Below, piece by piece: positions 5,075-47,196 of a DNA stretch of 64,000 nt. Origin of the DNA: Frankiales bacterium (GTDB taxonomy: Bacteria > Actinomycetota > Actinomycetes > JAWWOW01); contig JAWWOW010000005.1 in NCBI GenBank assembly GCA_033851265.1, positions 302,972-366,971 of the forward strand. Direction: 5' to 3'. Within the stretch, counting starts at the first letter, position 1. Every line of letters starts with the position of its first letter. Below the pieces are notes generated by a model, which did no database searches, had not been told where the DNA came from, and saw nothing but the letters and a program-made list of their open reading frames with translations. The position numbers were made by a program, and so were the translations under genes.

Positions 5075-5089
5075 GGCCGAGGCTGAGCC

Positions 5090-23093: not shown

Positions 23094-24296
23094 ATGCGCA
23101 GGATCGAGTACGCCGGCAGCGTGCACGACGAGGCCGAGGTCGCCGCGGTTGTCGAAGTTCTGCAAGGCCCCCCGACTGCAATGCGCATCGGCAAGAACGT
23201 GCGCGCCTTCGAGCAGGGAATCGCCGAGCTGTTCGGCAAGACGCACGGCATCATGTGCAACTCCGGGTCTTCCGCGCTCTACCTGGCGGTCGAAGCCCTC
23301 GATCTGTCTCCCGGTGACGAGGTCATCACCTCGGTCGTGACCTTCTCGACCGACGTCGCGCCTCTTGTCCGGGCCGGCTTGATCCCGGTGTTCGTTGACG
23401 TGGAGCGCGACACGTTCAACATCGACGTGGACGCGATCGAACGGATCATCTCGTCGCACACGCGCGCCGTACTGATCCCGAACCTCGTCGGTAACGCCCC
23501 GGACTGGGACCGCATCCGCGACATCGCGGACCGGCACGAGCTCGCCGTCATCGAGGACTCATGCGACGCACTCGGCTCGACGTTGCGCGGCACTCCGACC
23601 GGGACGCGCTCGGACATCAGTGTCACGAGCTTCGCGCTATCCCACATCATCACGGCGGCGGGCACCGGTGGCATGGTCTGCCTCGACGACGACGAGCTGA
23701 CGGACCGGATCCTGCTACTGCGGCGATGGGGCCGGCGGTCCGAGCCGCAGCTCTTCGGGTCACGCAAGGGCGTCGACAAGCGCTTCTTCAGCGACGTTGA
23801 CGGTCTGGAGTACGACAACTTGTTCATCTTCGATGAGGTCGGCTGGAACTTCGAACCGTCCGAGCTGTCCGCGGCGTTCGGGCTGGTGCAATTGTCCAAG
23901 CTTCCCGCGAATCTCGCTCGCCGCAAGCGGAACTTCGCAGCGCTACGCGAGCATCTCGCGGGCTACCCAGACTTCTTCGAGTTGCCGCGAACCACGGCGG
24001 AACTCAACACGGCGTGGCACATGTTCCCGTTCCTGATCCGCCCCGAGTCGGGCATCCGCCGCGGTGAGCTGCAAGAGCACATGGAACGGCACGGTGTCGA
24101 CACGCGGATGGTCTGGACCGGCAACGTCTTGCGCCAGCCGGCGTTCGCCAAGATCGAGCACCGCGCCGACCCCGCGGGTTATCCCAACGCCGATCGGGTC
24201 ATGGAGCAGGGACTCGTGCTCCCCTCGAACCACGGCATGAACGACGACGACGTCGCGTACGTGTGCGAAACCCTCGACGCGTTCCTGAACCGTTAG
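23094..24296 (+). CDS. DegT/DnrJ/EryC1/StrS family PLP-dependent aminotransferase
   Basis: ATG at 23094 after AGGGGAGGGG. N-terminal EAEVAAVVEVLQG. TSFALSHIITAAGTGGM with Lys-containing PLP region. Family-typical C-terminus. Confidence 0.85.
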   Translation: MRRIEYAGSVHDEAEVAAVVEVLQGPPTAMRIGKNVRAFEQGIAELFGKTHGIMCNSGSSALYLAVEALDLSPGDEVITSVVTFSTDVAPLVRAGLIPVFVDVERDTFNIDVDAIERIISSHTRAVLIPNLVGNAPDWDRIRDIADRHELAVIEDSCDALGSTLRGTPTGTRSDISVTSFALSHIITAAGTGGMVCLDDDELTDRILLLRRWGRRSEPQLFGSRKGVDKRFFSDVDGLEYDNLFIFDEVGWNFEPSELSAAFGLVQLSKLPANLARRKRNFAALREHLAGYPDFFELPRTTAELNTAWHMFPFLIRPESGIRRGELQEHMERHGVDTRMVWTGNVLRQPAFAKIEHRADPAGYPNADRVMEQGLVLPSNHGMNDDDVAYVCETLDAFLNR

Positions 24297-25816
24297 CGCG
24301 GTCTACGGATCCCAATACCTGTACGGCGTGATCGGATAGCGACGTCCGAGTGGGTTGATGAGTGTTGCTGTGCCGTTAGGCCCGGGAATCGTCGTCCAGC
24401 CATTGTTCTTCGTGGTGCGGTTGTGGTGGGCGCAGCCGGATCCCATGGTGTCGACGTTGGTTTACCACCGTCGGTCCATCCGTCGCGATGGTCGACGTCG
24501 TTGTCTTCGGCGGGTCTGCCGCAGCTGGGCACGAAGCATTCGCGGTCGCGGTCGACGACGTATCCGCGTTGCCGTTTCGACGCGGTCCGTCGGTCTCGGT
24601 GGAGGTCGAGCCGGTCGTCGTCGGGGCGAGTGAGCCAGCCGGTTGCCGGGTCGACGGGCAGAAGCTTGAACCGCAGATCGGCACCCGGCACGACACTGGC
24701 CCCGCCTGGTTGCGGCTCGCTCGAACCACGCTCGGTCGGACGGAGCCCGCTGTCCCAGCGACCGTCAGCGTCCTCGGGGTCGTGGTAGCGGAACGGGTCG
24801 TCATCGACGGTGTCATCGGCGTCGCGGTCGGGTTGCCCAGCGATGACCCGTCGGGCAACGGATGCGGAGATTGGGCCGTATCCCGGGATGTCTGCCGGGT
24901 CGTCGTCCTGACCCGCGGCGGTGCTCGCCTTGACGACCAGGCCCACCGTTGCCGGCACGGGACCGACCTCGGGCGGCAACGACGTTTCGCCGATGTGGGC
25001 TTTAGCGATGAGATTGCCGGCCGCCATGGCGAACACCAGCCCGACCAACGCGTCGAACCGGCCGGCGCCGATCGTGTCGACCTGGCCGCTCCTCTTCATC
25101 TGCTTGGCCCACGCGGTGAGGATGAGGAAGACCGCGACGACAGCCTCGGTCGGCCCTTCGACCCACATGCCTGACTGGCCGTCACCGACCGGGCGGGGCC
25201 GTTCGACGCGGCGCTCTCGACGGCGTTGCCGCCGGCGTTCTTCGGCGGCTTCGGGGTCGACTGCGAGGACGGCCTTTTCCACCGCGCGTCGGGTCTCGGC
25301 CCGGGTCTGCTCGGGGGCCCGGCGCAATACCGTCGCTTCGACCGTGCGCGCATTGTCGTCGGTGAGCATCCAGGTGCCGTCGGCGATTTCGAAGGCCTGC
25401 TGGTAGGAGATCCGCCCGTCTTCGAGCAGGTCCAACGTGTCGTGCAATCGCCTGCTCAGGTCGGTCGCCGCACTGATGCGGCTGTGCGCTGCAGTGTCAC
25501 CGATCCGTAGCGCGGAACCTACCTCCCAAGCGCACCACCTGTCGTCGCCGAATCTCGGAGTCGCTGCCAGCGAAGCCAGGGTCGTTTGCTGTTGGGCGTC
25601 GAGCCAGTGCCGGCATTCGTCCCACTGCTCCGCCACCCCGAGCTTCTGCTCGGGGGTGAGGAGATCCAGATCGATCTGGCTCAGGGCGGCGATGCGCGCT
25701 GGCCCCGGCCAACTCAACCCAGCCTTCAGTAGCAGTTCGCCTGCATGGGCGATCCGCTCATCAGTGGCGATGCGCCGGGCGCCGTGGTACTCGAACATAC
25801 GTTCGATTATACCCAC
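24293..25816 (-). CDS. DUF222 (REP13E12-type) protein with C-terminal HNH region that appears degenerate
   Basis: N-terminus MFEYHGARRIATDERIAHAGELLLKAGL is typical of DUF222. C-terminal CFVPSCGRPAEDNDVDHRDGWTDGGKPT matches the first half of the HNH motif. The expected N...LCRRHH continuation is only partly visible (NQRRHH) in the +1 frame. Confidence 0.75.
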   Translation of the reverse strand: MGIIERMFEYHGARRIATDERIAHAGELLLKAGLSWPGPARIAALSQIDLDLLTPEQKLGVAEQWDECRHWLDAQQQTTLASLAATPRFGDDRWCAWEVGSALRIGDTAAHSRISAATDLSRRLHDTLDLLEDGRISYQQAFEIADGTWMLTDDNARTVEATVLRRAPEQTRAETRRAVEKAVLAVDPEAAEERRRQRRRERRVERPRPVGDGQSGMWVEGPTEAVVAVFLILTAWAKQMKRSGQVDTIGAGRFDALVGLVFAMAAGNLIAKAHIGETSLPPEVGPVPATVGLVVKASTAAGQDDDPADIPGYGPISASVARRVIAGQPDRDADDTVDDDPFRYHDPEDADGRWDSGLRPTERGSSEPQPGGASVVPGADLRFKLLPVDPATGWLTRPDDDRLDLHRDRRTASKRQRGYVVDRDRECFVPSCGRPAEDNDVDHRDGWTDGGKPTSTPWDPAAPTTTAPRRTMAGRRFPGLTAQQHSSTHSDVAIRSRRTGIGIRRPR

Positions 25817-27979: not shown

Positions 27980-29463
27980 TCGACGTCCTCGTCTTATTGC
28001 CCGGCGTCAGCAGCTCGGACCACAGCAAGGACGTTCTGTTCCAGTTGTACGTCGGCGTGACCGCGCTGGTCTTCGCGCTGGTCATCGGAGTGCTGCTGCT
28101 CGCTGTCGTCTTCTTCCGCCGGGAACGGCAACCGGAGGAGGGCAGGCGCACTCTCGAGACCAGGGACGACTCGCCTGCTGTTGCCGCGCTGCTCGTGCAC
28201 ACGCGCGAGGTGCCGGGTGAGGCCGCCGCAGCAACGCTGGTCGACCTAGCCGCGCGCGGAACGGTCGAGATCCTCGACATGGGCGGCGGGACTCCCGCCG
28301 TACGGCTGCTGGAAACGGCTCCACTTGGACTCAGGGCTTACGAGCAACGTGTGTTCGAGCTGGTCCGAAGGCATGCGGACGGTGACGGGGTCGCTCCGGC
28401 GGACGCGCTGACCTTGTCAGACGACGAAGCATCGGAGAAGTGGCTCGAAGAATTCCGTAGTGAAGTCCGCGACGAAGCGCGGAGCAACGGATGGGTGCGC
28501 AAGCGGTACGGCACCGAGGTCTCGATTGTGGCTGTGCTGCTGCTCATTGGTGCCGTGGTCATCGCCATCTGGGGTTACGCAACCGCGACGAAGTTTCCAG
28601 CCGATGTAGCGCACCCTCCTACACCGCACTCCGACTTGCGCGCCGGCTTGGTCTGGGCGGCGGTGCTGCTTGGCGGGGCAGAGTTCGTAGCGATCAGCGC
28701 GCTCTGGCGCAGCGCAGCGCAACGGCTAACTCGTTCGGGTAGACCCGTTGCCGCATCCTGGCTCGGCGTTGCAGCACATCTCCGTGACGACGAACAGCTA
28801 GCTGAAGCACCACCCACGGCGGTCGCGATCTGGCACCGGTTGCTTGCGTACGCGACCGGCTTCGGCGTTGCGCACGCCGTGCAAGAGCGGATCCCGCTAG
28901 GCCCGGAGTCCCGTAGCAGGGCGTGGAGCGCCGAAAGCGGTCGTTGGCGGCAAGTGCGGGTGCGCTATCCCGAACGCTGGCCTCCCGGGTGGGGGAGTCG
29001 GCCCGGCGAACTCGTGAAGTACGGCGCGGGTCGGCTGCTGATGGTGGGTGTTCCCGTTGTCGTGATCCTCACCGTGGGCGTGCAACTGATACGCGCTGGC
29101 GTGCTGGACTCCGCGCCGTGGTGGAGCGTCGCGTTTGCCGGTCTCGTCGCCGGCCCGTTCCTGCTCCTTGCCGCCGCGGGGATCGTCAACCTCCTCTTCG
29201 GGTTGGTCATGCTTGCGTCGTTGTTCGGCCCGCCGCGTGAGGTCACCGGTCTGGCTGTTCGGGTGCGTCCGATCCCGGGGCAAACCGCGGGAATGTGGGT
29301 CGCCATCGACGACGGCACGAGGGACGAGGTCGTCGCCTACAAGGTCCGGGTATCGAACTCGATCCAGCAGGGCGACCACGTGCGGCTGCTGGTACGCCCG
29401 CTGAGCGGACAAGTGTTGGCCGCGGCCGATAGCACCGAGCCGGTCGGCGCGGCTACTCGATGA
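27976..29463 (+). CDS. DUF2207-like polytopic membrane protein, the usual LemA partner
   Basis: TTGA overlap with the lemA stop. N-terminal TM, large middle domain, C-terminal multi-TM region. Confidence 0.7.
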   Translation: MIDVLVLLPGVSSSDHSKDVLFQLYVGVTALVFALVIGVLLLAVVFFRRERQPEEGRRTLETRDDSPAVAALLVHTREVPGEAAAATLVDLAARGTVEILDMGGGTPAVRLLETAPLGLRAYEQRVFELVRRHADGDGVAPADALTLSDDEASEKWLEEFRSEVRDEARSNGWVRKRYGTEVSIVAVLLLIGAVVIAIWGYATATKFPADVAHPPTPHSDLRAGLVWAAVLLGGAEFVAISALWRSAAQRLTRSGRPVAASWLGVAAHLRDDEQLAEAPPTAVAIWHRLLAYATGFGVAHAVQERIPLGPESRSRAWSAESGRWRQVRVRYPERWPPGWGSRPGELVKYGAGRLLMVGVPVVVILTVGVQLIRAGVLDSAPWWSVAFAGLVAGPFLLLAAAGIVNLLFGLVMLASLFGPPREVTGLAVRVRPIPGQTAGMWVAIDDGTRDEVVAYKVRVSNSIQQGDHVRLLVRPLSGQVLAAADSTEPVGAATR

Positions 29464-30112
29464 CGTAGGCCATTGCGAAGCCGTCGTACCCCTTGCTGCC
29501 GACCGTCTGAATCACGGTGGCGCTGACGCGCGGTTCTGACTCGACGAGGGTGAAGAGCTCTCGCGTGCCAAGCACATTGGGGTCCGAACTGTTCTCCTCG
29601 AGGATCGCTCCGTTGCGTACGACGTTGTCGACGATGATGACGCTGCCGGGCCGCGACAACTTCAACGCCCAGGCGAAGTACGCCGGGTTGTTCACCTTGT
29701 CGGCATCGATGAACGCGAGATCAAAAGGTGGCAGATCAGCGAGCGCCGGCAGCGACTCGAGCGCGGGCCCAACGCGCACCTCCACGATCGCGCCGAAGCC
29801 TGCGGCTTCAATGTGGCGCCGCGCCAGCTCGGCGTAGTCCGGATTCGCTTCCAACGTCACTAGCCGGCCGTCAGCGGGCAGCGCGGATGCGATCCAGATG
29901 GTGCTGTAGCCGCCCAGGGTCCCGATCTCGAGCACATGACGCGCGTTGATCGAACGCGCCAAGAGATGCAGGAACTTGCCCTGCGGCGGCGACACATTGA
30001 TTGCAGGCAATCCAGCGTTGCGGCTGTTTTCCAGCGCTGCCGCCGCTGGATGGTCGCCCACGAGTACCTCGGTGAGGTACTCGTCGACCGCGGCCCACCG
30101 CTCGTCCGTCAT
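29453..30112 (-). CDS. Class I SAM-dependent O-methyltransferase (caffeoyl-CoA OMT-like)
   Basis: VLEIGTLGGYSTIWIA SAM motif I. DLAFIDADK. 219 aa. Confidence 0.9.
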   Translation of the reverse strand: MTDERWAAVDEYLTEVLVGDHPAAAALENSRNAGLPAINVSPPQGKFLHLLARSINARHVLEIGTLGGYSTIWIASALPADGRLVTLEANPDYAELARRHIEAAGFGAIVEVRVGPALESLPALADLPPFDLAFIDADKVNNPAYFAWALKLSRPGSVIIVDNVVRNGAILEENSSDPNVLGTRELFTLVESEPRVSATVIQTVGSKGYDGFAMAYVIE

Positions 30113-30124
30113 GTCAGCACGGCT

Positions 30125-30601
30125 TTACGCGTAGACCATTCGCGTGACCCAGTCAGCGACCAAAGCTGGCTTGTCTTCGCCTTCGATCTCCACTGTCACG
30201 GTTCGCACGGACTGCAACGTGTTCGGGTCTTTCAGGTCCACGCTCGAAAGCACGCTGGATGCCCGAATGCGTGAGCCGACCTTGACCGGAGCGATGAAGC
30301 GCACCTTCTCGAAGCCGTAGTTGACCCCCATGACGATGCCGTCCAAGCGCTCGGGCGGCTGCGGGATCGACGAACACAGATGACTGAGCATGGACAGCGT
30401 CAGGAATCCGTGCGCGATCGTTACTCCCCACGGCGACATCTCGGCGGAGAGTTTCGGGTCGACGTGGATGAACTGATGGTCCTCCGTCACATCAGCGAAC
30501 GCGTTGATCCGGTCCTGGTCGACCATGAACCAATCGCCAGTGCCCTCAGCCTCACCGATCGCAGCCTTGAACAGCTCGTATGCGTTCTCGCCCTTGCTCA
30601 T
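30125..30601 (-). CDS. MaoC-like (R)-specific enoyl-CoA hydratase, hot-dog fold
   Basis: Start at the second ATG, preceded by GAGGAG. FADVTEDHQFIHVDP hot-dog hydratase motif. Confidence 0.85.
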   Translation of the reverse strand: MSKGENAYELFKAAIGEAEGTGDWFMVDQDRINAFADVTEDHQFIHVDPKLSAEMSPWGVTIAHGFLTLSMLSHLCSSIPQPPERLDGIVMGVNYGFEKVRFIAPVKVGSRIRASSVLSSVDLKDPNTLQSVRTVTVEIEGEDKPALVADWVTRMVYA

Positions 30602-30659
30602 CGCACTCCTCATGTATGGCGTTGCGCGTCAGGATAGATTCACAGAGATTCGCATGCGC

Positions 30660-31832
30660 TCACGGGGGAGACGTGGCTGTGTGCGCGAGGAAAACGCGCA
30701 ACGCAGCGCCACCGCCGTTGCGGTCCTCGACCCAGGCCCGACCGTCATGGCGGGCCGCGAAGTGGCCGACGAGGGCCAAACCGATGCCCATGCCCGGGGC
30801 ATGCGTGCGCAAGACCGAACCGTGTTCGAAGGCGCCAAAGATCCTGCTGCGAACGTGCTCGGGGATACCCGGCCCGTTGTCATCAACGCAGATGAGGATG
30901 CCGTCCGGTTGGGCCCGAACGGCGACCCAGATCTGAGCGGTATCTGGTGTGTGGGTGACGGCGTTCGAGACCAGGTTTTCGATGATGCGCTCGACCATCC
31001 CAGGGTCGACGTTCGCTTGCAGGTCCGGGGCTTCAACGTGAATCGGGCGTGGTGAGTGCAACGCATCGACTACCCAGCGCACGAATGAGCCGACATCGAT
31101 CTCCTGACGGCGGGCTTCGAGGACTCCTCGACCGAGACGATCAACGTCGAGCAGGTCGGCGATGAGCCGGTCGAGTTTCTCTGCGCTCCCCGCGATGCGT
31201 TCGACACAGTCGCGACGCAATTCGGTGGATAGCTCCGCATCGTGATCTTTGAGTGTCCGGGCGAAGCCAAGTAGCGCAGTCAATGGCGTTCGGAGTTCGT
31301 GGGAAACGGTCGTGATGAATATCGACTTGGCTGCCTCTAACGCTTTTCTTGACGTGATGTCCTGCGCGAGCACCAAGACTGCATCGCGGTCGGCAAATCT
31401 CTGTGCGTGCGAAACGATCTCGACATCGATGACACGGCCGTCCTTCAGTCTGTGCTTCCAGGCACCTGAATGATGCACCGGGGACCGTCCGAGAGACGGG
31501 TCTCCGTGCACGAGCTGGACGTCCTCCGGAGGTCGGATGTCCTCGATGGTCAGGGTGAGGAACTCATCACGCGAGTACCCATAGTTCGCGGTTGCGGCTG
31601 AGTTGACTTCGAGGATGCGCAGTGTCTCGACGTCGTAGACCCACATCGGGTAGGGGTTATCGGCGAAGAGTGCGCGGAAGCTCTGCTCGCGTTCGTAGAG
31701 CTCGCGCGTGGTTCGTTCGGCGATGCTCTCCGCTTCTTGTCGCGCACGCTGTTCCCGGACCAGCCGTCGCCTGAGCCGCGCGAGCTCGGAGTCGTCGCTG
31801 GGATCCGCCGGTGTCGGGCTAAGCCGCGACAC
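30660..31832 (-). CDS. PAS-domain sensor histidine kinase
   Basis: Coiled-coil N-terminus, PAS block (FRALFADNPYPMWVYDVETLRILEVNSAATANYGYSRDEF), HisKA H-box SHELRTPL, HATPase N/G boxes. Confidence 0.9.
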   Translation of the reverse strand: MSRLSPTPADPSDDSELARLRRRLVREQRARQEAESIAERTTRELYEREQSFRALFADNPYPMWVYDVETLRILEVNSAATANYGYSRDEFLTLTIEDIRPPEDVQLVHGDPSLGRSPVHHSGAWKHRLKDGRVIDVEIVSHAQRFADRDAVLVLAQDITSRKALEAAKSIFITTVSHELRTPLTALLGFARTLKDHDAELSTELRRDCVERIAGSAEKLDRLIADLLDVDRLGRGVLEARRQEIDVGSFVRWVVDALHSPRPIHVEAPDLQANVDPGMVERIIENLVSNAVTHTPDTAQIWVAVRAQPDGILICVDDNGPGIPEHVRSRIFGAFEHGSVLRTHAPGMGIGLALVGHFAARHDGRAWVEDRNGGGAALRVFLAHTATSPP

Positions 31833-32622
31833 GTTTTCGCAGCCTCACGCCGAAACAAGACCCAGTGGGCTGGTTCTGCTCGTACCACGTCTCGCCGCCG
31901 TTGGCATGGGCGAGTCCGCGCACGATCGATAAGCCGAGACCGGTGCCACCTTTCTCGTGGCTGCTCGCACCGCGAACGAACTTGCCGAACAGTCGTGGAA
32001 CCAACTCCTCTGGAACTCCTTCGCCACAGTCTCGAACCTCGATCTGAACCCAGGATCCGGCGTCACGCGTCAGTACTTCGATGGGGGGCGAGCCGTAGGT
32101 GAGTGCATTGCGCACATAGTTGGTCAGGATTCGCTGTAGGTGATCCCGGTCGACAACGGCGTCAACATCGTCGGCGACGCAGCGGATCTCTTCGCTCCGA
32201 TCGTTGAAGCCGGACATCAGCTCGGCCATCGCATCCCGGATCGGAACGACGTCGGCGACGGTTTCCAACGCACCGGCTTCGATCGTGGATGCGGTGAGCA
32301 GGTCGTCGATCAGGCGAGCCAGTCGCTTTCCCTGTCGCTCGATAGTCGAGAGGAATTGCGCACGAGTCTCCGTTGGTAGGTCTGGCCAGCGCTTCGACAG
32401 CGTTGATGCCATGCCGAGGATGGCAGTCAGTGGCCCACGAAGGTCGTGTGCCGTTACCGCGATGAATTCTTTCAGCGATTCGTTAAGGGACTCGAGCTCC
32501 GCGTTGACCCGGTAGAAGTCCGCCGTTACCCGCTCGGCAATATTCTCAGCTTCGTGGCGGGCAGTTCGCTCGCGGTCGAGCCGGCGTTGGATGCCCTCGA
32601 CAGGGTCAGGGGAAGAGGTCAT
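31819..32622 (-). CDS. Histidine kinase without sensor domain (HnoK-like)
   Basis: 267 aa. N-terminal coiled coil paralogous to the PAS-HK. H-box AHDLRGPLTA. HATPase_c motifs. Starts 6 nt after the H-NOX stop. Overlaps the next HK start by 14 nt. Confidence 0.9.
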   Translation of the reverse strand: MTSSPDPVEGIQRRLDRERTARHEAENIAERVTADFYRVNAELESLNESLKEFIAVTAHDLRGPLTAILGMASTLSKRWPDLPTETRAQFLSTIERQGKRLARLIDDLLTASTIEAGALETVADVVPIRDAMAELMSGFNDRSEEIRCVADDVDAVVDRDHLQRILTNYVRNALTYGSPPIEVLTRDAGSWVQIEVRDCGEGVPEELVPRLFGKFVRGASSHEKGGTGLGLSIVRGLAHANGGETWYEQNQPTGSCFGVRLRKRVAA

Positions 32623-32628
32623 CGCACG

Positions 32629-33171
32629 TTAACCGACGGGAAGTTTCGCGCGCAGTAAGCAGCGCGCGTCGCCTCGTTTGACGCACTCCGGCTGGTCGAC
32701 AAGCGTGGTTTCACCGAAGTGGTCTGCAGCGCCCTCGATAAGCCCTTCGGCGAACAGGCACAGCCCGCGGTGAGACTCGTAGGAGAGCGAAACCGCGTGC
32801 GGGTCGTTGGAGTCGACTTCGAACGTCGGCGCATAGGCACCGGGGAAGAGCTTGCGCACCTCCGGATGAATCACGTCGTTGAGGGTCAGCAGGAAGGACC
32901 GCGTGTTCTGGTGAGTGTCGAAGAAGGCGGGATAGCGGTTGTACAGCAACGGCAATGCCTGGCGACCAAACCATCGCACGAGATCATCGACCGGTCGGCC
33001 GGTGGCTTCCGACGCCAAGACGACGAGAGCAACCAACTCTTCGTGCGGGTAGCTGCCCACCGACGTGTACGCACCCGAGAGATTCGCTTGCGAGAGGAGG
33101 GTGTCCCATGTCTCCTCACCGAACTCATCGCCCACAACTTGCTCGAGCAGGTTGAAGATGACGCCTTTCAC
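32629..33171 (-). CDS. hnoX: H-NOX (haem nitric oxide/oxygen-binding, HNOB) domain protein
   Basis: MKGVIFNLLEQVV N-terminus. Single His in DVIHPEV at the expected proximal-haem-ligand position. Y-x-S-x-R haem-propionate motif (YESHRGL). LCLFAEGLIEGAADHF block. 180 aa stand-alone domain, closely alignable to Shewanella-type H-NOX. Confidence 0.85.
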   Translation of the reverse strand: MKGVIFNLLEQVVGDEFGEETWDTLLSQANLSGAYTSVGSYPHEELVALVVLASEATGRPVDDLVRWFGRQALPLLYNRYPAFFDTHQNTRSFLLTLNDVIHPEVRKLFPGAYAPTFEVDSNDPHAVSLSYESHRGLCLFAEGLIEGAADHFGETTLVDQPECVKRGDARCLLRAKLPVG

Positions 33172-33245
33172 GTTGCCCCCTGGGGTTTCGCCCGAAGATC
33201 AAACGGTACGCGCACTGAGACCATGCAGCGGCGCGCCAGGCCGGG

Positions 33246-34370
33246 TTAGGCCTTGCGTTGCCATCTCGGCAGCGCTTCCACGCCCAAACGCAACGGCGGG
33301 ACAGTCTCCGGCGTTGACGAGGGATGCCGCTTGTAGAGCAGCGGGTGACTCATCGCAGTCCGGTCATCCGGCGCTCGGCGTACGACGCCCCGCGCGGTCA
33401 GGTGCGCATCGTCGACCAGCTCGGTTTGCCCAAGCACCGGCGAGACCGGCACGCCGGCAGCAGCGAGCAGGGACACCGTGTCATCGCGCGACAGCTTCGC
33501 GATCGCCGTGGCCAACTGCGCATTGAGCGCTTCTTGCTCAGCAGAGCGTTCGACGAAGGTCAGCTCAGCGAGGTCGGACAGACCAAGTGCTGTCACCAGG
33601 GCCAGCCACAACGGTTGTTCCGCCAGTACGCCGAGCGTGATCCAGCCGTCATCGGCGGTTCGAAATGCGCCGTAGCCCGCGGCACCGCCGCGCATGACGT
33701 CGCCGTTGTCCAGGCGCAGTTTGGGCAGCGGCCCGGTCCACGTCGCGAGCACGTCGGCCATCGCGACGTCGATGTACTCGCCCTCACCAGTGCGGCCAGC
33801 GCGCACGAGAGCCGCGCAGATTGCCATCGCGGCGTAGACCCCACCGGCGAGGTCGGCAATCGGTGGACGGCCGACCACTGGCTCAGCTCCGGTGGCGCGT
33901 GGCTCCACGATGCCGGCGAGCGCCTGGTAGTTGAGGTCATGGCCCGGCACGTCACGCATCGGTCCGGTCTGGCCGTATCCGGACACCGAGCAGTAGACGA
34001 CCGTCGGGTTCACCGCGCTCACATCGTCGTAGCCGAGGCCGAGCCGGTTGACGACGCCGGGCCGGAAACCTTCGGTGACCACGTCGGCATCGCGGGCGAG
34101 CTCGAGCACTGCGCCGCGTTGGGTCGAGTCCTTGAGGTCGATGGCAACCGCGCGCTTGCCCGCATTGAGAATCGCAAACAGATCAGGAAACACCCGCATC
34201 GGGTCGCCACCGGGTGGCTCGATCTTGATGACGTCCGCGCCCATCTCGACGAGCAGTTGTGTTGCGTAGGGGACCGGTCGCCAGATGCCGAGGTCAAGAA
34301 CACGTACGCCGGACAACAGCCCCGATCCGCTGCTCACGTCGCTGCGCGTTCCAGGACGTGCACGCAGCAC
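33246..34370 (-). CDS. CoA-transferase family III (CaiB/BaiF)
   Basis: GVRVLDLGIWRPVPYATQLLVEMGADVIKIEPPGGDP N-terminus diagnostic of family III. Confidence 0.9.
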   Translation of the reverse strand: MLRARPGTRSDVSSGSGLLSGVRVLDLGIWRPVPYATQLLVEMGADVIKIEPPGGDPMRVFPDLFAILNAGKRAVAIDLKDSTQRGAVLELARDADVVTEGFRPGVVNRLGLGYDDVSAVNPTVVYCSVSGYGQTGPMRDVPGHDLNYQALAGIVEPRATGAEPVVGRPPIADLAGGVYAAMAICAALVRAGRTGEGEYIDVAMADVLATWTGPLPKLRLDNGDVMRGGAAGYGAFRTADDGWITLGVLAEQPLWLALVTALGLSDLAELTFVERSAEQEALNAQLATAIAKLSRDDTVSLLAAAGVPVSPVLGQTELVDDAHLTARGVVRRAPDDRTAMSHPLLYKRHPSSTPETVPPLRLGVEALPRWQRKA

Positions 34371-35530
34371 GCCGAGCCGAGTCCGATGACGTGCGTGAGC
34401 CCGACCTTCGCGTCTGGCAGCTGGCGGTCACCCGCCTCGCCGCGAAGCTGGGTCGTGACTTCATACACATTGGCGATACCGGTGGCACCGATCGGATGCC
34501 CCTTCGACAGCAGCCCGCCTGACACGTTGACCGGTGTGCGGCCGTCGCGCCACGGCGCTCCTGAGTCGATGAAGTCACCGGCACCGCCCGGCTCGCACAA
34601 CCGCAGGTTGTCGTAGTGCACCAGCTCGGCCGTCGCGAAGCAGTCATGCAGCTCGACGAGATCGAGATCCTCGGGTCCGACGCCGGCAACTTCGTAGGCG
34701 CGGTCCGCGGCGTTGCGCGTCAACGTGTTGACGTCCGGCAGCACTTCGGTTTCGGGTGTGTAGGGATCGGTAGTCATCACCGATGCGGCGATGCGGACTG
34801 CGCGCCGTCGTACATCCGGATCCATCGTGCGCAGGCGCTTTTCCGAGACGACAACGGTCGCTGCTGCGCCGTCACCGATCGGGCATGCCATGAGCAGCGT
34901 GTTCGGATAGCTGAGCATCTCGGCCGTCATGATCTGCTCGAGCGAGTAGCGATCGCGGTACTGCGCGAGAGGGTTCAGCACCGCGTGCGCGTGGTTCTTC
35001 TCCGCCACCTTGGCGAACTGCTCGAAGTCGACGCCGCCGTGTGCGCGCGCGTAGTCGAGGCCGACCTCGGCGAAGACGCCGAACATCTGCCCGGTGCCGA
35101 GCATCCCTTCGGTCGGGAGTACGGCGCCCGCGCGTCCCGTGGGGGTGAACGTCTCGGCGTTGTGCCGTGGCATCGCAAACGGCGTACCCGGGTTGGTCAT
35201 CTGTTCGGCGCCGAGCGCAAGCCCGATGTCTGCCTCGCCGGCGCGAATCTCCATGATGACGCTACGCAGTGCCGTCGCGCCGGTGGCGCAGGCGTTGTGC
35301 ACGTTGTAGAGCGGGATGCCGGTCTGTCCGACTTGTTGAAGGACCCGTTGGCCGAAGGTGATGGTCTCGAACTGGCTGCCGACGGCCATCACTTGAACGT
35401 CGTGCATCGATAGCGCTGCGTCGTCGAGTGCACCGAACACAGCTTCACTGGCGAGGTCGAGAACATCGCGATCGCGGAACTTGCCGAACGGCGTCATCGC
35501 CGTGCCGACGATCCACACTGAGTCCGACAA
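34334..35530 (-). CDS. Thiolase-like lipid-transfer protein (SCP-x/Ltp-type, non-canonical thiolase)
   Basis: VWIVGTAMTPFGKF N-terminus. CATGATAL active-site Cys region. C-terminal GHPIGATG. Confidence 0.9.
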   Translation of the reverse strand: MSDSVWIVGTAMTPFGKFRDRDVLDLASEAVFGALDDAALSMHDVQVMAVGSQFETITFGQRVLQQVGQTGIPLYNVHNACATGATALRSVIMEIRAGEADIGLALGAEQMTNPGTPFAMPRHNAETFTPTGRAGAVLPTEGMLGTGQMFGVFAEVGLDYARAHGGVDFEQFAKVAEKNHAHAVLNPLAQYRDRYSLEQIMTAEMLSYPNTLLMACPIGDGAAATVVVSEKRLRTMDPDVRRRAVRIAASVMTTDPYTPETEVLPDVNTLTRNAADRAYEVAGVGPEDLDLVELHDCFATAELVHYDNLRLCEPGGAGDFIDSGAPWRDGRTPVNVSGGLLSKGHPIGATGIANVYEVTTQLRGEAGDRQLPDAKVGLTHVIGLGSACCVHVLERAAT

Positions 35531-35541
35531 CGTGCTCCTCC

Positions 35542-35928
35542 TCAGACCGGTCGAAAGCCGAAGGCGATGGCCTCGGTGCCATGCGTATCGGTCGCAACCG
35601 GATACGTCACCAGCTCGACGCGGCCGCCGAGCGGGATGGATTCAGGAGTTGGCGGCACGTCTACGAGGTTCGACTTCACGATCGTCCCGTCGTCCAGCTC
35701 GACAACCGCCGAAACGAACGGATCGCCGCGTTTGCCCCGGTGCACGATCGTGAAGGTCCGCAGCATGCCAGTGGGAGGCAGGTCGATCTGCTCGAACGTG
35801 CGCCCGCTGCAACTCGCGCACCCGTTGTGGCGCTGGAGGAACACCGCGCTGCAGGTGAGGCAACGATTTCCTCGCAGCCGCGGCGGATCCGCCAACGAGA
35901 GATAGTCGACTACCGGAAGGCTCGGCAC
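35542..35928 (-). CDS. DUF35 OB-fold/zinc-ribbon protein (thiolase partner)
   Basis: CxxC...CxxC ribbon (CLTCSAVFLQRHNGCASCSG) followed by an OB-fold segment. Immediately upstream of the Ltp-like thiolase. Confidence 0.85.
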   Translation of the reverse strand: MPSLPVVDYLSLADPPRLRGNRCLTCSAVFLQRHNGCASCSGRTFEQIDLPPTGMLRTFTIVHRGKRGDPFVSAVVELDDGTIVKSNLVDVPPTPESIPLGGRVELVTYPVATDTHGTEAIAFGFRPV

Positions 35929-35947
35929 CGCTGCAGCCTACGGATCG

Positions 35948-35977
35948 TTGACACGTCACGTTCCCTGCACCTAGTTT
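35948..35977 (+). promoter_or_regulatory. Candidate sigma-A-type promoter for frdA
   Basis: TTGACA (35948-35953), 18-nt spacer, TAGTTT (35972-35977). About 80 nt upstream of the frdA start. Confidence 0.3.
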
Positions 35978-36058
35978 CGCGAACCTGGATGCACGAGTGA
36001 CGAGGTTCGGCGCGGACAGTTGGACTAGCTGGACGCCCTTCAGCCGGGAGTAGGCCGC

Positions 36059-37825
36059 TTGTCCGACAGCCTCGAGCACGACCTCCTTATTGTCGGTGGA
36101 GGCGGCGCCGGCCTGCGGGCGGCGATCGCCGCTGCGGAGGCGTTTCCGGACCTCGACATCGCGGTGGTGTCCAAGGTCTACCCGATGCGCAGCCACACGG
36201 TGTCCGCGGAGGGCGGCGCGGCCGCAGTCATCAAACCCAATGACTCTCTCGACGATCACTTCCGTGACACGGTGTCCGGTTCCGACTGGCTGGCCGACCA
36301 GGACGCCGTCGATGCCCTCGTGACCGAGGCACCCCGGGAGCTCCTGCAGCTCGAGCACTGGGGTTGTCCCTGGAGCCGCGAACCGGACGGCACTGTGGCG
36401 GTCCGGCCGTTCGGTGGGATGAGCATCGAGCGCACGTGGTTCGCCGCCGACAAGACCGGCTTCCACATGCTGCACACGCTGTTCCAGACCTCGTTGAAAT
36501 ACCCGGCGAACACCAGGTACGACGAGTGGTTCGCGACACGCCTGCTCGTCGAGGATGGCCGTTGCCAAGGTGTGACCGCGATCGAGCTACGCACCGGACA
36601 GGTGCGCGCAATCCTCGCGAAGGCCGTCGTCATGTGCACCGGTGGCTTCGGCCGGATCTTCCCGTTCACGACCAACGCCGCGATCAGCACCGGCGATGGA
36701 CTCGGGCTCGCTTATCGCGCGGGAGTGCCGCTCAAGGACCTGGAGTTCGTGCAGTACCACCCGACGGGGCTGCCCGGCACCGGCATCCTCATCACCGAGG
36801 CAGCACGCGGTGAGGGCGGCATCCTGATCAACAAGGACGGGGAGCGCTACCTCCAGGACTACGACCTCGGGCAGCCGCTCGACGTCCACGACGAGCACCA
36901 CCCGCAGCTGCGCACGATGGAGCTCGGGCCGCGTGACCGGCTCTCGCAGGCGTTCATGAAGGAGCAGGACAAAGGCAAGGTGTTCGAGGGGGAGTACGGC
37001 ACCTACGTGCACCTCGACGTTCGCCATCTCGGCGAGAAGAAGATCGACAAGAAGATCCCGTTCGTCCGGGAGCTGACGAAGAACTACGTCGGGATCGACC
37101 CGGTGCACGAGCCGATCCCGGTGCGCCCGGTCGTTCACTACATGATGGGCGGGATCGACACCAACGTTGACGCAGCGACGCTGATGCCCGGGCTGTTTGC
37201 TGCCGGCGAGTGCGCCTGCGTGAGCATCAACGGTGCCAACCGGCTTGGTTCCAACTCACTCGTGGAGATCCTGGTGTTCGGTGCTCGGGCCGGGAAGAAC
37301 GCCGGACAGTGGGCTCGCGAGCATTCCAAAATCAATCACGCCGCGGTCGAGGCGCAGGCGGCTGATGAGCAGAAGCGCATCTCCCGGGACTTCATCAACA
37401 AGCACGATGGGTCCATTCGTCCCGCGACGATCCGCACCGAGTTGCAGCGCACCATGGAAGCGGGCTGCGGCATCTACCGCACCGAGGCGTCGTTGCGGGC
37501 AACCGCCGAAAAAGTCGCGGAGCTGAAAGAGCAGTTCACGCGCGTCAAACTCGACGACCACAGCCTCAGCTTCAATACTGAGCTCATTACCGCGCTAGAG
37601 CTCGAGTGCATGCTCGACATTTCCGAAGCACTCGTGCACTCGGCGCTTCGGCGTACCGAATCCCGCGGCTCGCATCAGCGCACTGACTACCCACAGCGCG
37701 ACGACGGGAAGTTCCTCAAACACTCCCTTGCTTACCGCAGTGACGGTACGCCGCGCATCGAGTACCGAGACGTGGTCATCACCAAGTGGCCGCCAGAAGA
37801 ACGCGTGTACGGCAGGGCTCACTAG
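36059..37825 (+). CDS. frdA: Fumarate reductase/succinate dehydrogenase flavoprotein subunit
   Basis: TTG start. [17 protein letters not shown] motif. Covalent-FAD His region [24 protein letters not shown]. Confidence 0.92.
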
Positions 37826-37840
37826 ACCTAACGGCTCAGG

Positions 37841-38677
37841 ATGGGGACGCAGATGACGGTCGAAGCCACGGACGGAATCACTGTCGGGCCGTCGGCACGT
37901 CCCTCCCAAGACACGATCTCGCTCGAGATCGCGCGCTACCGGCCGGGGCACGACGAGCATCCGACGTTCGAGAGTTACGACGTTCCGTACCGCCCCGAGT
38001 GGGTCGTGCTCGACGCGCTCAACTACTTGAAGGACCAGGTCGACGGCACGCTGTCCTACCGGTGGTCGTGCCGCATGGGTGTGTGCGGCTCGTGCGGGAT
38101 GATGGTCAACGGCGTACCGAAGCTGACGTGCGCAACGTTCCTTCGCGACTATCTGCCCGGCCCGATCCGGGTCGAGGCGCTCGCTAACTTTCCGATCGAG
38201 CGCGACCTCGTCATCGTGCTCGACGACTTCATCGAAAAGCTTCCGAAGATCAAGCCGTGGCTCGTCCGTGAGGTCGAGCAACCGCTCGAGGAAGGCGAGT
38301 ACCTCCAGACACCGAAGGAGCTCGCTGACTACAAGCAATACAGCATGTGCATCAACTGCATGCTGTGTTACTCGGCCTGTCCCGTGTATCAGAACGACGA
38401 ACACTTCCTCGGTCCGGCCTTGCTCGCATTGGGTCAGCGCTACAACCACGACTCCCGTGACCAGGGCGCAGCCGAACGGCACGACGTGATGTGGACGAGC
38501 GAGGGTGTCTGGGACTGCACTTTCGTGGGCGAGTGCAGCGTCGTCTGTCCGAAGCATGTAGATCCGGCCGGGGCCATCCAGCAGGCCAAGGTGGAGAGCA
38601 CCATCGGCTGGCAGCTGTCGTTCGCGCCCCCCGTTCCGCCGCTGCCGTTCGGCCGCAAGCAGGCGGAGGAGACCTGA
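37841..38677 (+). CDS. frdB: Fumarate reductase iron-sulfur subunit
   Basis: Cys clusters [27 protein letters not shown] and [12 protein letters not shown]. Confidence 0.9.
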
Positions 38678-42169: not shown

Positions 42170-42550
42170 TTACTCGGTGCCCTCGAACTGGTGGTCTACG
42201 TTGCCCGCGGGGTCTTCGTGCCCGCCGGGACCGTCCGAGGGGCTCTCCGTCTCGGTACCGGTCTCAGGTGCCTCGGTCCCGGGCGCCTCTGCAGCTTCCG
42301 ACCCCGTGTCCGGGGTCGTCTGGTCACCTTCCTGAACATTGTCCGCGTCCGTCGGTGCGGCCGGCTTGGCCTTCGCCGGGGCGGCGGGAGCGGCAACCGC
42401 GGCTGGCGCTTTGGTCACCACCGTGGACACAACTGCAGGCTTAGTCGGCGCATTCGAGCCCGTTGCCGCGAACGCGACGCCGGTGCCCAGGCCTCCGGCA
42501 GCCAGCGCTAGTCCAGCTGCGATCGCAAGCGGTCGGTGGATCTTTGGCAT
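42170..42550 (-). CDS. Small secreted protein, paralog B, with C-terminal DGPGGHxDPAGNVDHQ motif
   Basis: Start at MPKIHRPLAIAAGLALAAGGLGTGVAFA. Tail PETGTETESPSDGPGGHEDPAGNVDHQFEGTE is nearly identical to paralog A. Confidence 0.6.
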   Translation of the reverse strand: MPKIHRPLAIAAGLALAAGGLGTGVAFAATGSNAPTKPAVVSTVVTKAPAAVAAPAAPAKAKPAAPTDADNVQEGDQTTPDTGSEAAEAPGTEAPETGTETESPSDGPGGHEDPAGNVDHQFEGTE

Positions 42551-42717
42551 GGTGCAAGCCTTCCCGTTCGTCCGGTGGCGGTTCCACCGGCTTGGGCACA
42601 CGCTGCACGGGCGGGCCTGACGGGACGGTGAACGTTCCTGACAACGCTGGCTGCGCGGCGCCGTTCAGAATCTGTTCAGATTGGCTTAGCCACTATGGCC
42701 CGGCTGGAAGGGGAACC

Positions 42718-43398
42718 GTGCCGAGAGTGCTAGTGGTTGAGGACGAGGCGGGTATCGCCACGGCGGTACGCCGCGGCCTGATCGCCGAGGGCTTCACCGT
42801 GGACATCGCCGACAACGGCGTCGACGGCTTATGGCGAGTAACCGAGAACGAGTACGACGCCGTCGTACTCGACATCATGTTGCCGCAGCTGTCTGGCTAC
42901 GAAGTCTTGCGCCAGATGCGCGCCGCCAACGTCTGGGCCCCGGTGCTCATGCTGACCGCGAAGGACGGGGAGTACGACGTCGCCGACGCACTCGATCTAG
43001 GCGCTGATGACTACCTGACCAAGCCGTTCTCCTTCGTCGTACTCATGGCGCGGCTGCGGGCGATGATGCGCCGAGTTCAGCGCGAGCGCCCCGCGGTACT
43101 GATGGCCGGTGATCTCGAGTTGGACCCAGCTCGTCGGCAGTGCGTTCGCGGCACGGTCGAGATCAAACTGACCGCGCGGGAGTTCGCCGTCCTCGAATAC
43201 CTGATGCGCTACCACGACGAAGTTGTGTCGAGGAGCGAGATCCTCGCGCACGTGTGGGACGAGAACTTCGAGGGTGACCCGAACATCGTTGATGTGTACG
43301 TCGGACGTCTCCGGCGCAAGGTAGATACACCGTTCAAGCGGCAGGCCATCGAAACCGTGCGTGGTGTGGGCTACCGGCTGCACGGCACCGGTGGCTGA
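42718..43398 (+). CDS. OmpR-family response regulator
   Basis: GTG start (residue-counted from the track ORF). Receiver LVVEDE...D...LMLTAKD. Winged-helix C-terminus (RGVGYRL). Confidence 0.9.
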   Translation: MPRVLVVEDEAGIATAVRRGLIAEGFTVDIADNGVDGLWRVTENEYDAVVLDIMLPQLSGYEVLRQMRAANVWAPVLMLTAKDGEYDVADALDLGADDYLTKPFSFVVLMARLRAMMRRVQRERPAVLMAGDLELDPARRQCVRGTVEIKLTAREFAVLEYLMRYHDEVVSRSEILAHVWDENFEGDPNIVDVYVGRLRRKVDTPFKRQAIETVRGVGYRLHGTGG

Positions 43399-43402
43399 CT
43401 TG

Positions 43403-44749
43403 ATGAGCGGTTGGTGGCGGCGGCGCTCGCTGCGCGCCCGCCTCACCGTTGCAGCGACCGCGGCTATCACCGTGGTGATCGCTGCCGCGGCAGCATTGCT
43501 GCTGTGGCGGGTGCACGCGTCTCTCGTCTCTCAACTCGACGCGACGATCACGCGAGAGGCGCTCAGCGTCGGTGCGGTCGTCCGCAACGCTGACCAACCA
43601 GTCGTGCCCGGCAAACTCGCTGGGGACATCGTCGTGCAGGTCGTCGACAACAACGGTCGCGTTGTTGCCAGCTCAGAGAACATCAACGGCGAGAGCCGAC
43701 TGTTCAGTTTCCGGGCACCCACGCCGCTTGCCAACGTGAGCATCCGCACGATGCCTAACGTCCCGGTGGGGGAGCAGGGTGAATATCGAGTGGCGGCCAC
43801 CGCGGTCGGCGGGGCCATTCCGTACACGGTGTACGTGGGCCGACCACTGGAGCCGACGAACCGGAGCGTGACCGAGTTCACGGTCGGGCTCGCGGTCGGC
43901 GTACCCGTGCTCGCCGCCGTCCTCGGCGGCATCACGTGGCTGCTCGTGGGGCTTGCCTTGCGACCGGTCGAAGTGCTCCGCAGGCAGGCGGCAGAAATAA
44001 CGGTCACAGATTTGCACCGCCGGGTCGACGTGCCACCGGCTCGGGACGAGTTGGCACGGCTGGCTGCCACTCTCAATGAGTTGCTCGATCGGTTGGACAG
44101 ATCACTGACCCAACAACAGCAATTCATCGCCGACGCAGCCCATGAGTTACGCAGTCCTATTACGTCGTTGCTTGCACAGCTTGAGGTAGCCGAACGCGGC
44201 GGCGGGGGCGCGACACCGGCCGAGCTCGCCCCTGAGGTCTGGCGGTTGTCCAAGCTCACCGATGACCTGCTGACGCTCGCGAGCCTCGACGCGGCTCCGT
44301 CAGGGCATCGGGACGAGGTGGACCTCGATGACCTCGTCTTCGCAGAGGTACAACGGCCGCGGCAGCGCACCGACGTGACCGTCGATGTCAGCGGTGTTTC
44401 CGCAGCTAGCGTTCATGGCGACGTAACGATGCTGACCCGCGTCGTACGCAACCTTCTGGATAACGCGATTCGTCACGCCCGCAGCCGAGTCGTCGTACAA
44501 CTGACTAGTGGGGGGAGCGATGCGACTCTGGTCGTCGCTGACGACGGTCCCGGCATTCCGGAGGAGAAGCGCGTTGAGGTGTTCGAGCGGTTCTCCCGGC
44601 TCGACGATGCCCGTGACCGCGATGCTGGTGGACGGGGGCTCGGTCTCGCCATCGTTCGTGATGTTGTGAACGCGCATGATGGTGTGGTGACCATCGAGGA
44701 CAATGACCCAGGCGCACGCTTTGTGGTGCGACTGCCGGCTGATCAATAG
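43403..44749 (+). CDS. Sensor histidine kinase (2 TM, HAMP, HisKA, HATPase_c)
   Basis: ATG 5 nt after the RR stop. H-box AAHELRSPIT. N box LLDNAIRHA. G boxes. Confidence 0.9.
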   Translation: MSGWWRRRSLRARLTVAATAAITVVIAAAAALLLWRVHASLVSQLDATITREALSVGAVVRNADQPVVPGKLAGDIVVQVVDNNGRVVASSENINGESRLFSFRAPTPLANVSIRTMPNVPVGEQGEYRVAATAVGGAIPYTVYVGRPLEPTNRSVTEFTVGLAVGVPVLAAVLGGITWLLVGLALRPVEVLRRQAAEITVTDLHRRVDVPPARDELARLAATLNELLDRLDRSLTQQQQFIADAAHELRSPITSLLAQLEVAERGGGGATPAELAPEVWRLSKLTDDLLTLASLDAAPSGHRDEVDLDDLVFAEVQRPRQRTDVTVDVSGVSAASVHGDVTMLTRVVRNLLDNAIRHARSRVVVQLTSGGSDATLVVADDGPGIPEEKRVEVFERFSRLDDARDRDAGGRGLGLAIVRDVVNAHDGVVTIEDNDPGARFVVRLPADQ

Positions 44750-46533: not shown

Positions 46534-46983
46534 CTACGCACCCGGCGCGGGCGTGCCCCACGGCCGGACGGCCCGGAGAGCGGCCACCAGGTTGATGACT
46601 CCGATGGCGGCCGGGCAGTACAGGTCGGCGCCCTCGTCGAGCGCTTCCGACTCGTCCTGCGGGCTGCCGGTGCCGTTGATGACGACGAGAGCCGCGGTCG
46701 GCGCTGCCATCCGGAGGGCGCGTAGCAGCAATCGCTCGTTGAGGGCATGCATGGCAAGGTCGACGATCATGAGGTCGGGCTGCAGGTCCTGGGCTCGGTG
46801 GACCGCGACGGCGTAGGTGGCGGCGGTGCCGACGACAGTGAAGTCGGGTTCACCGTCGAGAATCCCCTGCAGCGCAGCGGAGTGAATCGACCGGTCCGTC
46901 ACCAGCAGGACCCGCCGGCTCGCGGTTACTCGGGACGGCAGCGCTGTGACGGACTGCCGACTCATCGTGCGACGTTGCTCCAT
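46534..46983 (-). CDS. Stand-alone response-regulator receiver domain protein
   Basis: VLLVTDR...DLMIVDLAMH receiver-like pattern. No output domain. Start chosen at the internal Met. Confidence 0.55.
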   Translation of the reverse strand: MEQRRTMSRQSVTALPSRVTASRRVLLVTDRSIHSAALQGILDGEPDFTVVGTAATYAVAVHRAQDLQPDLMIVDLAMHALNERLLLRALRMAAPTAALVVINGTGSPQDESEALDEGADLYCPAAIGVINLVAALRAVRPWGTPAPGA

Positions 46984-47196
46984 GAGACTGGCCTTGCCCT
47001 TCGACCGGAGTTGCTGGGATGTGTCGGTCTTGAGCCCCCCATTTGGACCTGCGTGCATTGGTCTATTCGGCCCAGCAAGAGTCAGTCTTGAGCCCAATGT
47101 CGGATTTCGCAGGCAGTTGTCACCCAAACGGCACATTCCGCTCATGGGCCGGCGCAGGGCTCGTCCCGGTAGCCGGTGCAGTTCGTGAGCCCGAGG

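Follow-up and report, generated by a model that had tools for sequence, protein, structure and literature searches.

How a single small sensor governs kinases, cyclases and phosphodiesterases alike is a question raised by H-NOX proteins, the bacterial relatives of the human nitric oxide (NO) receptor; according to a 2022 review, the structure of a complex between an H-NOX and a signalling partner was still lacking (PMC8738867). A locus that bears on this question lies in a stretch of 64,000 nucleotides (nt) from Frankiales bacterium (assembly GCA_033851265.1, contig JAWWOW010000005.1, positions 302,972 to 366,971), hereafter called the window. There, a gene for a stand-alone H-NOX is followed by genes for two soluble histidine kinases, HK1, which has no sensor domain, and HK2, which has a PAS domain. 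What connects one H-NOX with two different kinases? The explanation that we consider probable is that the cassette is a three-gene signalling unit with operon-like coupling, in which the H-NOX acts as a detachable sensor for both HK1 and HK2.

The observation that carries this explanation is an N-terminal helix of about 30 residues, RRLxRERxARxEAExIAE..T..LY, which heads HK1 and HK2. A first-pass annotation, made from the sequence alone, had described the two N-terminal coils as near-identical. The common motif is indeed there, but the identity is lower than that wording suggests (17 of 41 positions, or about 16 of 26 in the core). Because the kinase cores are only 32% identical, HK1 and HK2 are not recent duplicates.

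The same helix is found well beyond the window. As partners of H-NOX we took the products of the genes directly downstream of H-NOX in 78 loci, and their domain classes were counted by Pfam. Histidine kinases make up about 50 of them, 20 are GGDEF proteins (17 with an EAL domain), 2 are HD-type proteins and 1 is a sigma-54 activator; GAF or PAS domains are present in many partners and receivers in 10. Whatever the output domain, the N-terminus is nearly invariant among the 79 downstream-encoded proteins that were compared, with the fuller consensus L-x-RRLERER-x-AR-x-EAE-x-IAE-x-x-T-R-x-LY. In the numbering of HK1, R17 and E26 are conserved in 100% of the sequences, E30 in 98%, E18 in 97%, and R22 and A25 in 95% each.

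A hidden Markov model (HMM) of the motif was built from 70 segments and used to search six-frame open reading frames of the window and 82 loci, amounting to 893 kb. Every match of at least 12 bits was located 2-189 nt past the stop codon of an H-NOX gene, except for HK2 and its orthologues, and no occurrence of the motif was found in the 893 kb apart from these and the H-NOX-adjacent proteins. An apparent exception in locus L056 turned out to be a match after a second H-NOX gene. HK2 itself was outside the training set. When the Caulobacter hnox-hnoK sequences were taken from the supplementary plasmid file of PMC12329717, the N-terminus of HnoK, ARLERRLSRELLARREAEAIAEAATHRLY, was recognized with 29.9 bits. 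On a larger scale, a two-sequence profile of the motif was compared with 1.84 billion representative proteins, and nearly all of the 385 matches were at the extreme N-terminus of signalling enzymes.

The case of HK2 is especially informative. While the motif is present in 118 of 120 homologues of HK1, only 4 of the best 120 homologues of HK2 possess it, namely the orthologues from the cassettes; the 116 that do not are related PAS kinases. Orthologues of HK2 with 59-73% identity (P0242-P0244) are always found within H-NOX cassettes, and in locus L084 the HK2 orthologue directly follows the H-NOX gene, with no HK1 between them. Since HK2 has the motif and 116 related PAS kinases lack it, one H-NOX probably controls both kinases.

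An additional hint comes from a natural single chain of 359 residues (P0460), in which an H-NOX domain (HNOB, residues 2-161) is joined through a linker of about 45 residues to the motif (210-249) and the start of a SpoIIE/PP2C phosphatase. This fusion suggests that a phosphatase can also be an output of H-NOX. A second protein with an internal motif (P0390, residue 215) was not used because it looks like a frameshifted assembly artefact. The divergence of H-NOX and that of the motif were also compared by the mirror-tree approach; the correlation (Spearman 0.45, reached in 0 of 300 permutations) is confounded by co-inheritance and was given little weight.

The geometry of the helix was examined in an AlphaFold2 model of HK1 (mean pLDDT, the predicted local distance difference test score, 90.7). 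Residues 7-81 are modelled as one uninterrupted helix that runs through the phospho-acceptor His59, and no extra domain is present. In this model, the motif (residues 11-37) is a direct N-terminal extension of helix alpha-1 of the dimerization and histidine phosphotransfer (DHp) domain. Conservation follows i/i+4 stripes, and positions 12, 16, 20, 23, 27, 31, 34 and 38 are variable, a pattern that fits a dimeric coiled coil with a conserved core and conserved flanking positions. Membership in the S-helix family was considered and rejected. The S-helix is a coiled coil of about 40 residues located between sensor and output domains, and 'ERT' is the signature at its centre (PMC1592074). The motif resembles it in general character, but has E30-R31-x-T33 in the place of ERT (R31 in 42% of the sequences, T33 in 61%) and is found at the extreme N-terminus.

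Altogether, the helix probably marks the H-NOX-adjacent proteins as clients of H-NOX, as judged from its distribution. As a tag of nearly all H-NOX-adjacent proteins, Caulobacter HnoK included, the motif is new here. A bolder proposal, which we make tentatively, is that the helix is a portable, previously undescribed docking tag that would place any bearer (kinase, hybrid kinase, GGDEF-EAL protein, HD-type phosphodiesterase, sigma-54 activator or PP2C phosphatase) under H-NOX control, so that one H-NOX might drive several clients. For the cassette of the window, a mechanism can be envisaged by analogy and from sequence features. The H-NOX would bind the N-terminal helix of both kinases, probably as a dimeric coiled coil. 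It would be switched either by NO, which forms a five-coordinate Fe(II)-NO haem, or by oxidation of zinc-site cysteines. A rotation of H-NOX subdomains might then pass down the helix and lower the autophosphorylation of HK1 and HK2, the PAS domain of HK2 would add a second signal, and the output would go to response regulators encoded elsewhere.

Several points weigh against this explanation. The HMM was trained on neighbors of H-NOX, so its sensitivity is circular, and specificity and the matches outside the training set are the only results that count. The loci were chosen by similarity to the H-NOX of the window, a set that excludes the 'group 2' partners of Shewanella and Vibrio. A self-associating coiled coil would give the same conservation pattern, with core and flanks conserved and a variable outer face. 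In the structure model of the P0460 fusion, confidence is high within the H-NOX domain and within the helix, but the predicted template modelling score of the whole is 0.53, and Foldseek matched the H-NOX part only. In the accessible literature the motif is not mentioned, and hydrogen-deuterium exchange mass spectrometry work on the kinase side (Rao 2017, Guo 2018) may describe or contradict the helix. Lastly, HK2 is absent from locus L001, whose identity is 75%, and therefore the two-kinase arrangement is limited to a narrow lineage.

The coordinates of the three genes and of their relevant parts are collected in Table 1, together with those of candidate output proteins found elsewhere in the window.

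Table 1. Features of the H-NOX cassette and candidate output proteins in the window (aa, amino acids).
Feature	Positions	Strand	Description
H-NOX	32629-33171	minus	180 aa, GTG start, stand-alone haem sensor
HK1	31819-32622	minus	267 aa, ATG start, soluble sensor-less class I histidine kinase
HK2	30660-31832	minus	390 aa, soluble PAS histidine kinase
HK1 partner motif	32485-32592	minus	about aa 11-46, IQRRLDRERTARHEAENIAERVTADFY...; motif HMM 54.4 bits; helix pLDDT >90
HK2 partner motif	31671-31781	minus	about aa 18-54, ARLRRRLVREQRARQEAESIAERTTRELY...; motif HMM 41.1 bits, E 5.5e-11
HK2 PAS domain	31353-31679	minus	aa 52-160; Pfam PAS_9 29.8 bits, PAS 27.4 bits
Region 5' of H-NOX	33172-33245	minus	74 nt; blocks kept in the L082 cassette despite a different upstream gene
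Orphan single-domain receiver	46534-47145	minus	Pfam Response_reg 39.6 bits; 13 kb from the cassette
Glyoxalase-fold protein	47197-47592	minus	beside the orphan receiver
GGDEF-EAL protein	48338-50794	minus	818 aa; unassigned N-terminus of 360 aa

The identity of the sensor is clear. Pfam HNOB (PF07700) matched it with 141.8 bits, far over the cut-off of 25.5, and the match spans residues 2-156 of the protein and positions 1-159 of the 163 in the profile. Against solved structures, phmmer gave 111.9 bits for the H-NOX of S. woodyi (6ocv) and 89.6 bits for that of S. oneidensis (4u99). No NCBIfam model matched the H-NOX, and for the kinases that library offered generic kinase models only, far under their cut-offs. 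Residues were aligned with S. woodyi 6ocv, S. oneidensis 4u99/2kii, K. algicida 6bdd and 75 relatives, and 60 clade members were aligned separately. The proximal His102, the predicted haem ligand on helix alpha-F, corresponds to His103 of S. oneidensis H-NOX and His102 of Tt H-NOX (numbering taken from the 1u4h sequence), and Pro115 corresponds to Tt Pro115, the conserved proline by which the haem is distorted; both residues are present in 75/75 relatives. In the haem-propionate motif YESHR, Tyr131 is found in 74/75, Ser133 in 75/75 and Arg135 in 72/75 relatives, and the motif is invariant in the 60 clade members. The annotation of a genuine H-NOX with a proximal His-Pro and a YxSxR clamp is thus upheld, and with all signature residues intact the protein is predicted to be haem-competent. 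In the distal pocket, Trp9, Asn74 and Tyr140 of Tt H-NOX are replaced by Leu9, Ala72 and Phe140 (Leu, Ala and Phe/Leu in the clade). Because the hydrogen-bond network for O2 is absent, the pocket is predicted to be apolar and of the NO type.

A second candidate switch is a zinc site. Cys138, His151, Cys163 and Cys171 align with the Cys/His/Cys/Cys ligands of S. oneidensis H-NOX, and the three cysteines are invariant in the 60 clade members and present in 67-68 of the 75 relatives. By its residues, the protein fits the zinc-site class (groups 2/3 of PMC7108781), with a putative Cys3His site, and it belongs to the Caulobacter-like 'group 3'. The H-NOX domain of the P0460 fusion lacks the zinc-site cysteines.

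An alternative is that the signal is oxidative stress rather than NO. If so, oxidation of Cys138, Cys163 and Cys171 (perhaps with His151) would produce the kinase-inhibiting form, NO would be devoid of functional effect, and the wiring to the kinases would remain the same. The first-pass annotation had invoked the model of Shewanella and Vibrio, in which NO-bound H-NOX inhibits the kinase (PMC8738867, PMC8846402). That model may not transfer, because in the closest characterized relative, the H-NOX of Caulobacter (44% identity), Fe(II)-NO H-NOX does not inhibit HnoK while oxidation of the zinc-site cysteines does (PMC12329717). The strict conservation of the three cysteines argues in the same direction, as does the host, a soil-type lipid-degrading actinobacterium for which the window shows no evident source of NO. 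Yet the residues of the haem pocket are conserved as strictly as the cysteines, the distal pocket is of the classic NO type, NO and oxidation are both effective in V. cholerae (PMC7108781), and 44% identity does not guarantee the same behavior. We regard oxidative stress as a quite possible signal, and the locus lends further support to the view that the Caulobacter-like group with a zinc site, which includes many uncharacterized Actinomycetota, may sense oxidants besides or instead of NO.

Detachable sensing by two kinases also requires that both kinases are plausible recipients of the signal. HK1 has the traits of an HnoK-type kinase as judged by gene order, Pfam and AlphaFold2: it adjoins hnox, is transcribed in the same direction, and is cytoplasmic with neither transmembrane segments nor a periplasmic sensor. 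Its only Pfam domains are HisKA (66.9 bits) and HATPase_c (84.1 bits). HK2 contains PAS_9/PAS, HisKA and HATPase_c. In both kinases the catalytic motifs are complete (H, N, G1, F and G2 boxes), with the phospho-acceptors His59 in HDLRGP (HK1) and His178 in HELRTP (HK2). Neither kinase matched HNOBA (PF07701) at E <= 0.01, the PAS domain of HK2 fitted generic PAS models only, and no sequence relative of this domain was found among solved structures. The view of HK1 as a sensor-less HnoK-like kinase tightly coupled to H-NOX, with a second kinase that has the common N-terminal helix, therefore stands.

The H-boxes of the two kinases differ at one position. HK1 has Gly63 (32446-32448) at His+4, as do 8 of 16 minimal partner kinases, and HK2 has Thr182 (31297-31299), so that HELRTP is a canonical E/DxxT/N motif. 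Motifs of this kind are linked with phosphatase activity. A division of roles might exist in which HK1 is kinase-only and HK2 is bifunctional.

One may also suppose that HK1 is the sole client of H-NOX and that HK2 is an independent PAS-sensing kinase, which would use its helix to form homodimers or heterodimers with HK1. In the window, HK1 separates HK2 from H-NOX, and HK2 has a sensor domain of its own; the conservation of the motif fits a coiled coil, and L001 lacks HK2. We consider this arrangement unlikely: the motif is also found in all output classes on partners that have no second kinase beside them, the 116 related PAS kinases are devoid of it, and the HK2 orthologue of L084 comes right after H-NOX.

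The reading in which H-NOX serves both kinases also gains from the layout of the cassette. The coordinates of the three open reading frames given by the first-pass annotation were confirmed, and their boundaries agree with those called independently by JGI and Logan for this DNA, which is part of a 1.04-Mb metagenomic contig. Proteins of the window match QOG53_1309/1308, from the MAG (metagenome-assembled genome) of an uncultured Frankiales bacterium, at 100%. The H-NOX stop codon and the HK1 ATG are separated by 6 nt, and the overlap between HK1 and HK2 is 14 nt. In the closest relative (L082, 84% identity), all three genes recur with an identical gap and overlap. At 32620-32631, the TAA stop of H-NOX, two codons and the ATG of HK1 share one frame (...KLPVG, stop, RAMTSS...), and the L082 cassette has the identical spacing; read-through would yield a fused protein. 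Because the spacing varies at other loci, translational coupling is probably all that this layout means.

Upstream of H-NOX, about 60 nt are conserved in the alignment of the window with L082, despite the different genes that come before them. The sequence TACCGT, a candidate -10 element, and a ribosome-binding site, GGGGG, can be read directly in the 5' region, which is probably the cassette's own promoter region, a suggestion made from the sequence. A scan of 29300-36200 for consensus promoters and terminators detected no promoter, and terminators no more than expected by chance; an inverted-repeat search upstream of H-NOX yielded nothing meaningful.

The surroundings of the cassette might suggest a different role, that of a dedicated regulator of the neighboring lipid/steroid-type catabolic genes. 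According to Pfam these encode a thiolase-like protein, a ChsH2-like OB protein, a CoA-transferase and a MaoC protein, and the flanking genes are co-directional with the cassette, at gaps of 74 nt and 46 nt. However, the orthologous cassettes have other flanks: in L082, a TetR gene is located upstream and an acetyltransferase gene and paa genes downstream, and in L083 the end of H-NOX, HK1 and HK2 are followed by short-chain dehydrogenase genes. Moreover, the 60 nt upstream of H-NOX travel with the cassette. A dedicated catabolic regulator is thus very unlikely. The module had been described as sitting inside a lipid-catabolic cluster; the neighbors are real, but the setting appears to be incidental.

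Finally, a marginal match of the H-NOX to Pfam V4R (32.1 bits against a cut-off of 31, residues 132-176) adds nothing, as it is confined to the C-terminal part of the stronger HNOB domain; V4R and HNOB are related families. That the protein senses O2, or is of the V4R type and binds hydrocarbons without haem, as this match and the label 'predicted hydrocarbon binding protein' of two JGI homologues might suggest, is hardly credible given the Leu/Ala/Phe replacement of the Trp9/Asn74/Tyr140 network, the haem ligands invariant in the 60 clade members, and the location of the V4R match inside a far stronger HNOB match.

If H-NOX controls both kinases, their output would go to regulators encoded outside the cassette. 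That no response regulator is adjacent was correctly noted in the first-pass annotation, which considered this unusual. It is normal: in V. cholerae the regulator HnoB is VC1086, encoded at a distance from hnoX/hnoK (PMC8738867), and for Caulobacter HnoK the targets have yet to be identified (PMC10746521). In the window, the orphan receiver, the glyoxalase-fold protein and the GGDEF-EAL protein, whose genes are grouped 13-18 kb from the cassette, are candidate downstream components of cyclic di-GMP signalling. The motif HMM gave no match to any of the three. A classical OmpR/HAMP-kinase pair at 42463-44749 is probably unrelated to the cassette.

How widespread are such systems? One genome per species was scanned, with taxonomy read from titles; 117 genomes with an H-NOX relative were found and the best 80 were kept. 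About 39 of these 80 belong to Actinomycetota, among them Frankiaceae, Mycobacterium/Mycolicibacterium, Nocardioides, Solirubrobacterales/Thermoleophilia, Nitriliruptorales and Acidimicrobiales, and the carriers include cultured organisms (Mycobacterium sp. M26, Nocardioides jiangsuensis and Paraconexibacter antarcticus). Among database proteins, H-NOX homologues number more than 2,600, the top 120 of which are 59-84% identical to the protein of the window. At least 120 homologues of HK1 have 265-290 aa and the same minimal architecture, and many of them are on contigs equal in length to those with H-NOX matches. The notion that H-NOX is rare in Actinobacteria is weakened, and actinobacterial homologues had been noted in 2020-2022: in a V. 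cholerae H-NOX similarity network of about 600 sequences, 'group 3', which has a Cys3-His/Gln site, includes Mycobacteriaceae, Nocardioidaceae, Acidimicrobiaceae, Micrococcaceae and Caulobacter (PMC7108781, PMC8738867). No Gram-positive H-NOX has been characterized (PMC7108781, PMC8738867). Hence, pairs of H-NOX and a minimal kinase are common in uncultured Actinomycetota, though uncharacterized there.

Some carriers have unexpected labels. Four contigs from MAGs of Thermoplasmatota/Thermoplasmatales (L021, L029, L036 and L066) encode an H-NOX 44-54% identical to that of the window, and in the first three it is followed by a motif-bearing kinase; horizontal transfer into archaea or mis-binning could be the reason. 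Another contig, 'MAG: Bifidobacterium breve' (L050), has an H-NOX with a GGDEF-type partner like those of the Mycobacterium loci L037 and L044-L047 (partner N-terminus ...NRRLERERRIRYQAEEIAERGLRDLYQ), and its organism label is probably wrong.

Other observations concern the vicinity of H-NOX genes. L056 harbors tandem H-NOX/kinase pairs (6001-9525, second H-NOX at 7589-8119) in which both kinases bear the motif, so that the outputs of H-NOX are multiplied in another way. In the window (24293-25816, minus strand) and in L082 (15104-16360), two loci that are otherwise non-syntenic, a DUF222-family gene is located some 5 kb downstream of the cassette; this recurrence may be a coincidence or a hint of mobility. 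On the other side, at 36059-38677 (plus strand), an operon of the fumarate-reductase/succinate-dehydrogenase type (flavoprotein, Fe-S protein and two membrane subunits) diverges from the ChsH2-like, thiolase and CoA-transferase genes that precede the H-NOX cassette. The corresponding positions in L085 are 2444-5774.

As an H-NOX/kinase pair alone, the locus represents a known system and is ordinary within it; the two-kinase arrangement and the client tag set it apart to some extent. Cases in which a single H-NOX is followed by two different kinases with the same helix are few and lineage-specific, and as one of them the locus offers a natural experiment in branched signalling. The motif appears to define H-NOX clients across phyla, which provides a testable hypothesis about the interface and could help to locate clients encoded elsewhere. 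If the docking tag proposal is true, clients of H-NOX would be predictable from sequence, and the tag would supply a minimal peptide for the first structure of an H-NOX-partner complex.

The closest characterized system is that of Caulobacter crescentus (CC2992/CC2993), whose H-NOX aligns with that of the window over 178 residues without gaps. Haem residues, apolar pocket and the three zinc-site cysteines are common to both; hnox is immediately upstream of a kinase that starts with the same motif, and no cognate regulator is adjacent in either case (PMC10746521). The outputs differ. Caulobacter HnoK is a single hybrid kinase of about 620 aa with a long region between motif and DHp and with a receiver, whereas the window has a PAS kinase and a minimal kinase of 267 aa in which the motif runs straight into the DHp domain. 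The fourth zinc ligand differs as well: His151 is found in the window, as in Shewanella, while Caulobacter has Gln in that column and His160 nearby. In addition, the host of the window is an uncultured actinobacterium of the Gram-positive type, unlike Caulobacter.

More distant than Caulobacter are the HnoX-HnoK systems (group 2) of S. oneidensis and V. cholerae. They also have a stand-alone NO-type H-NOX with a zinc site beside a cytoplasmic kinase and response regulators encoded elsewhere, and the H-NOX proteins align over their full length (89.6 bits to 4u99), but each H-NOX has one kinase there. A more remote likeness is found in soluble guanylate cyclase, where activation brings the beta H-NOX into contact with the coiled coil (PMC6839917). 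This enzyme offers an analogy for a stand-alone H-NOX that would act on a helix extending the DHp domain, since in both cases H-NOX would talk to a catalytic module through a dimeric helix. In the cyclase, the domains are joined covalently and a PAS domain stands between them; in the window, the motif is instead at the extreme N-terminus of separate kinases.

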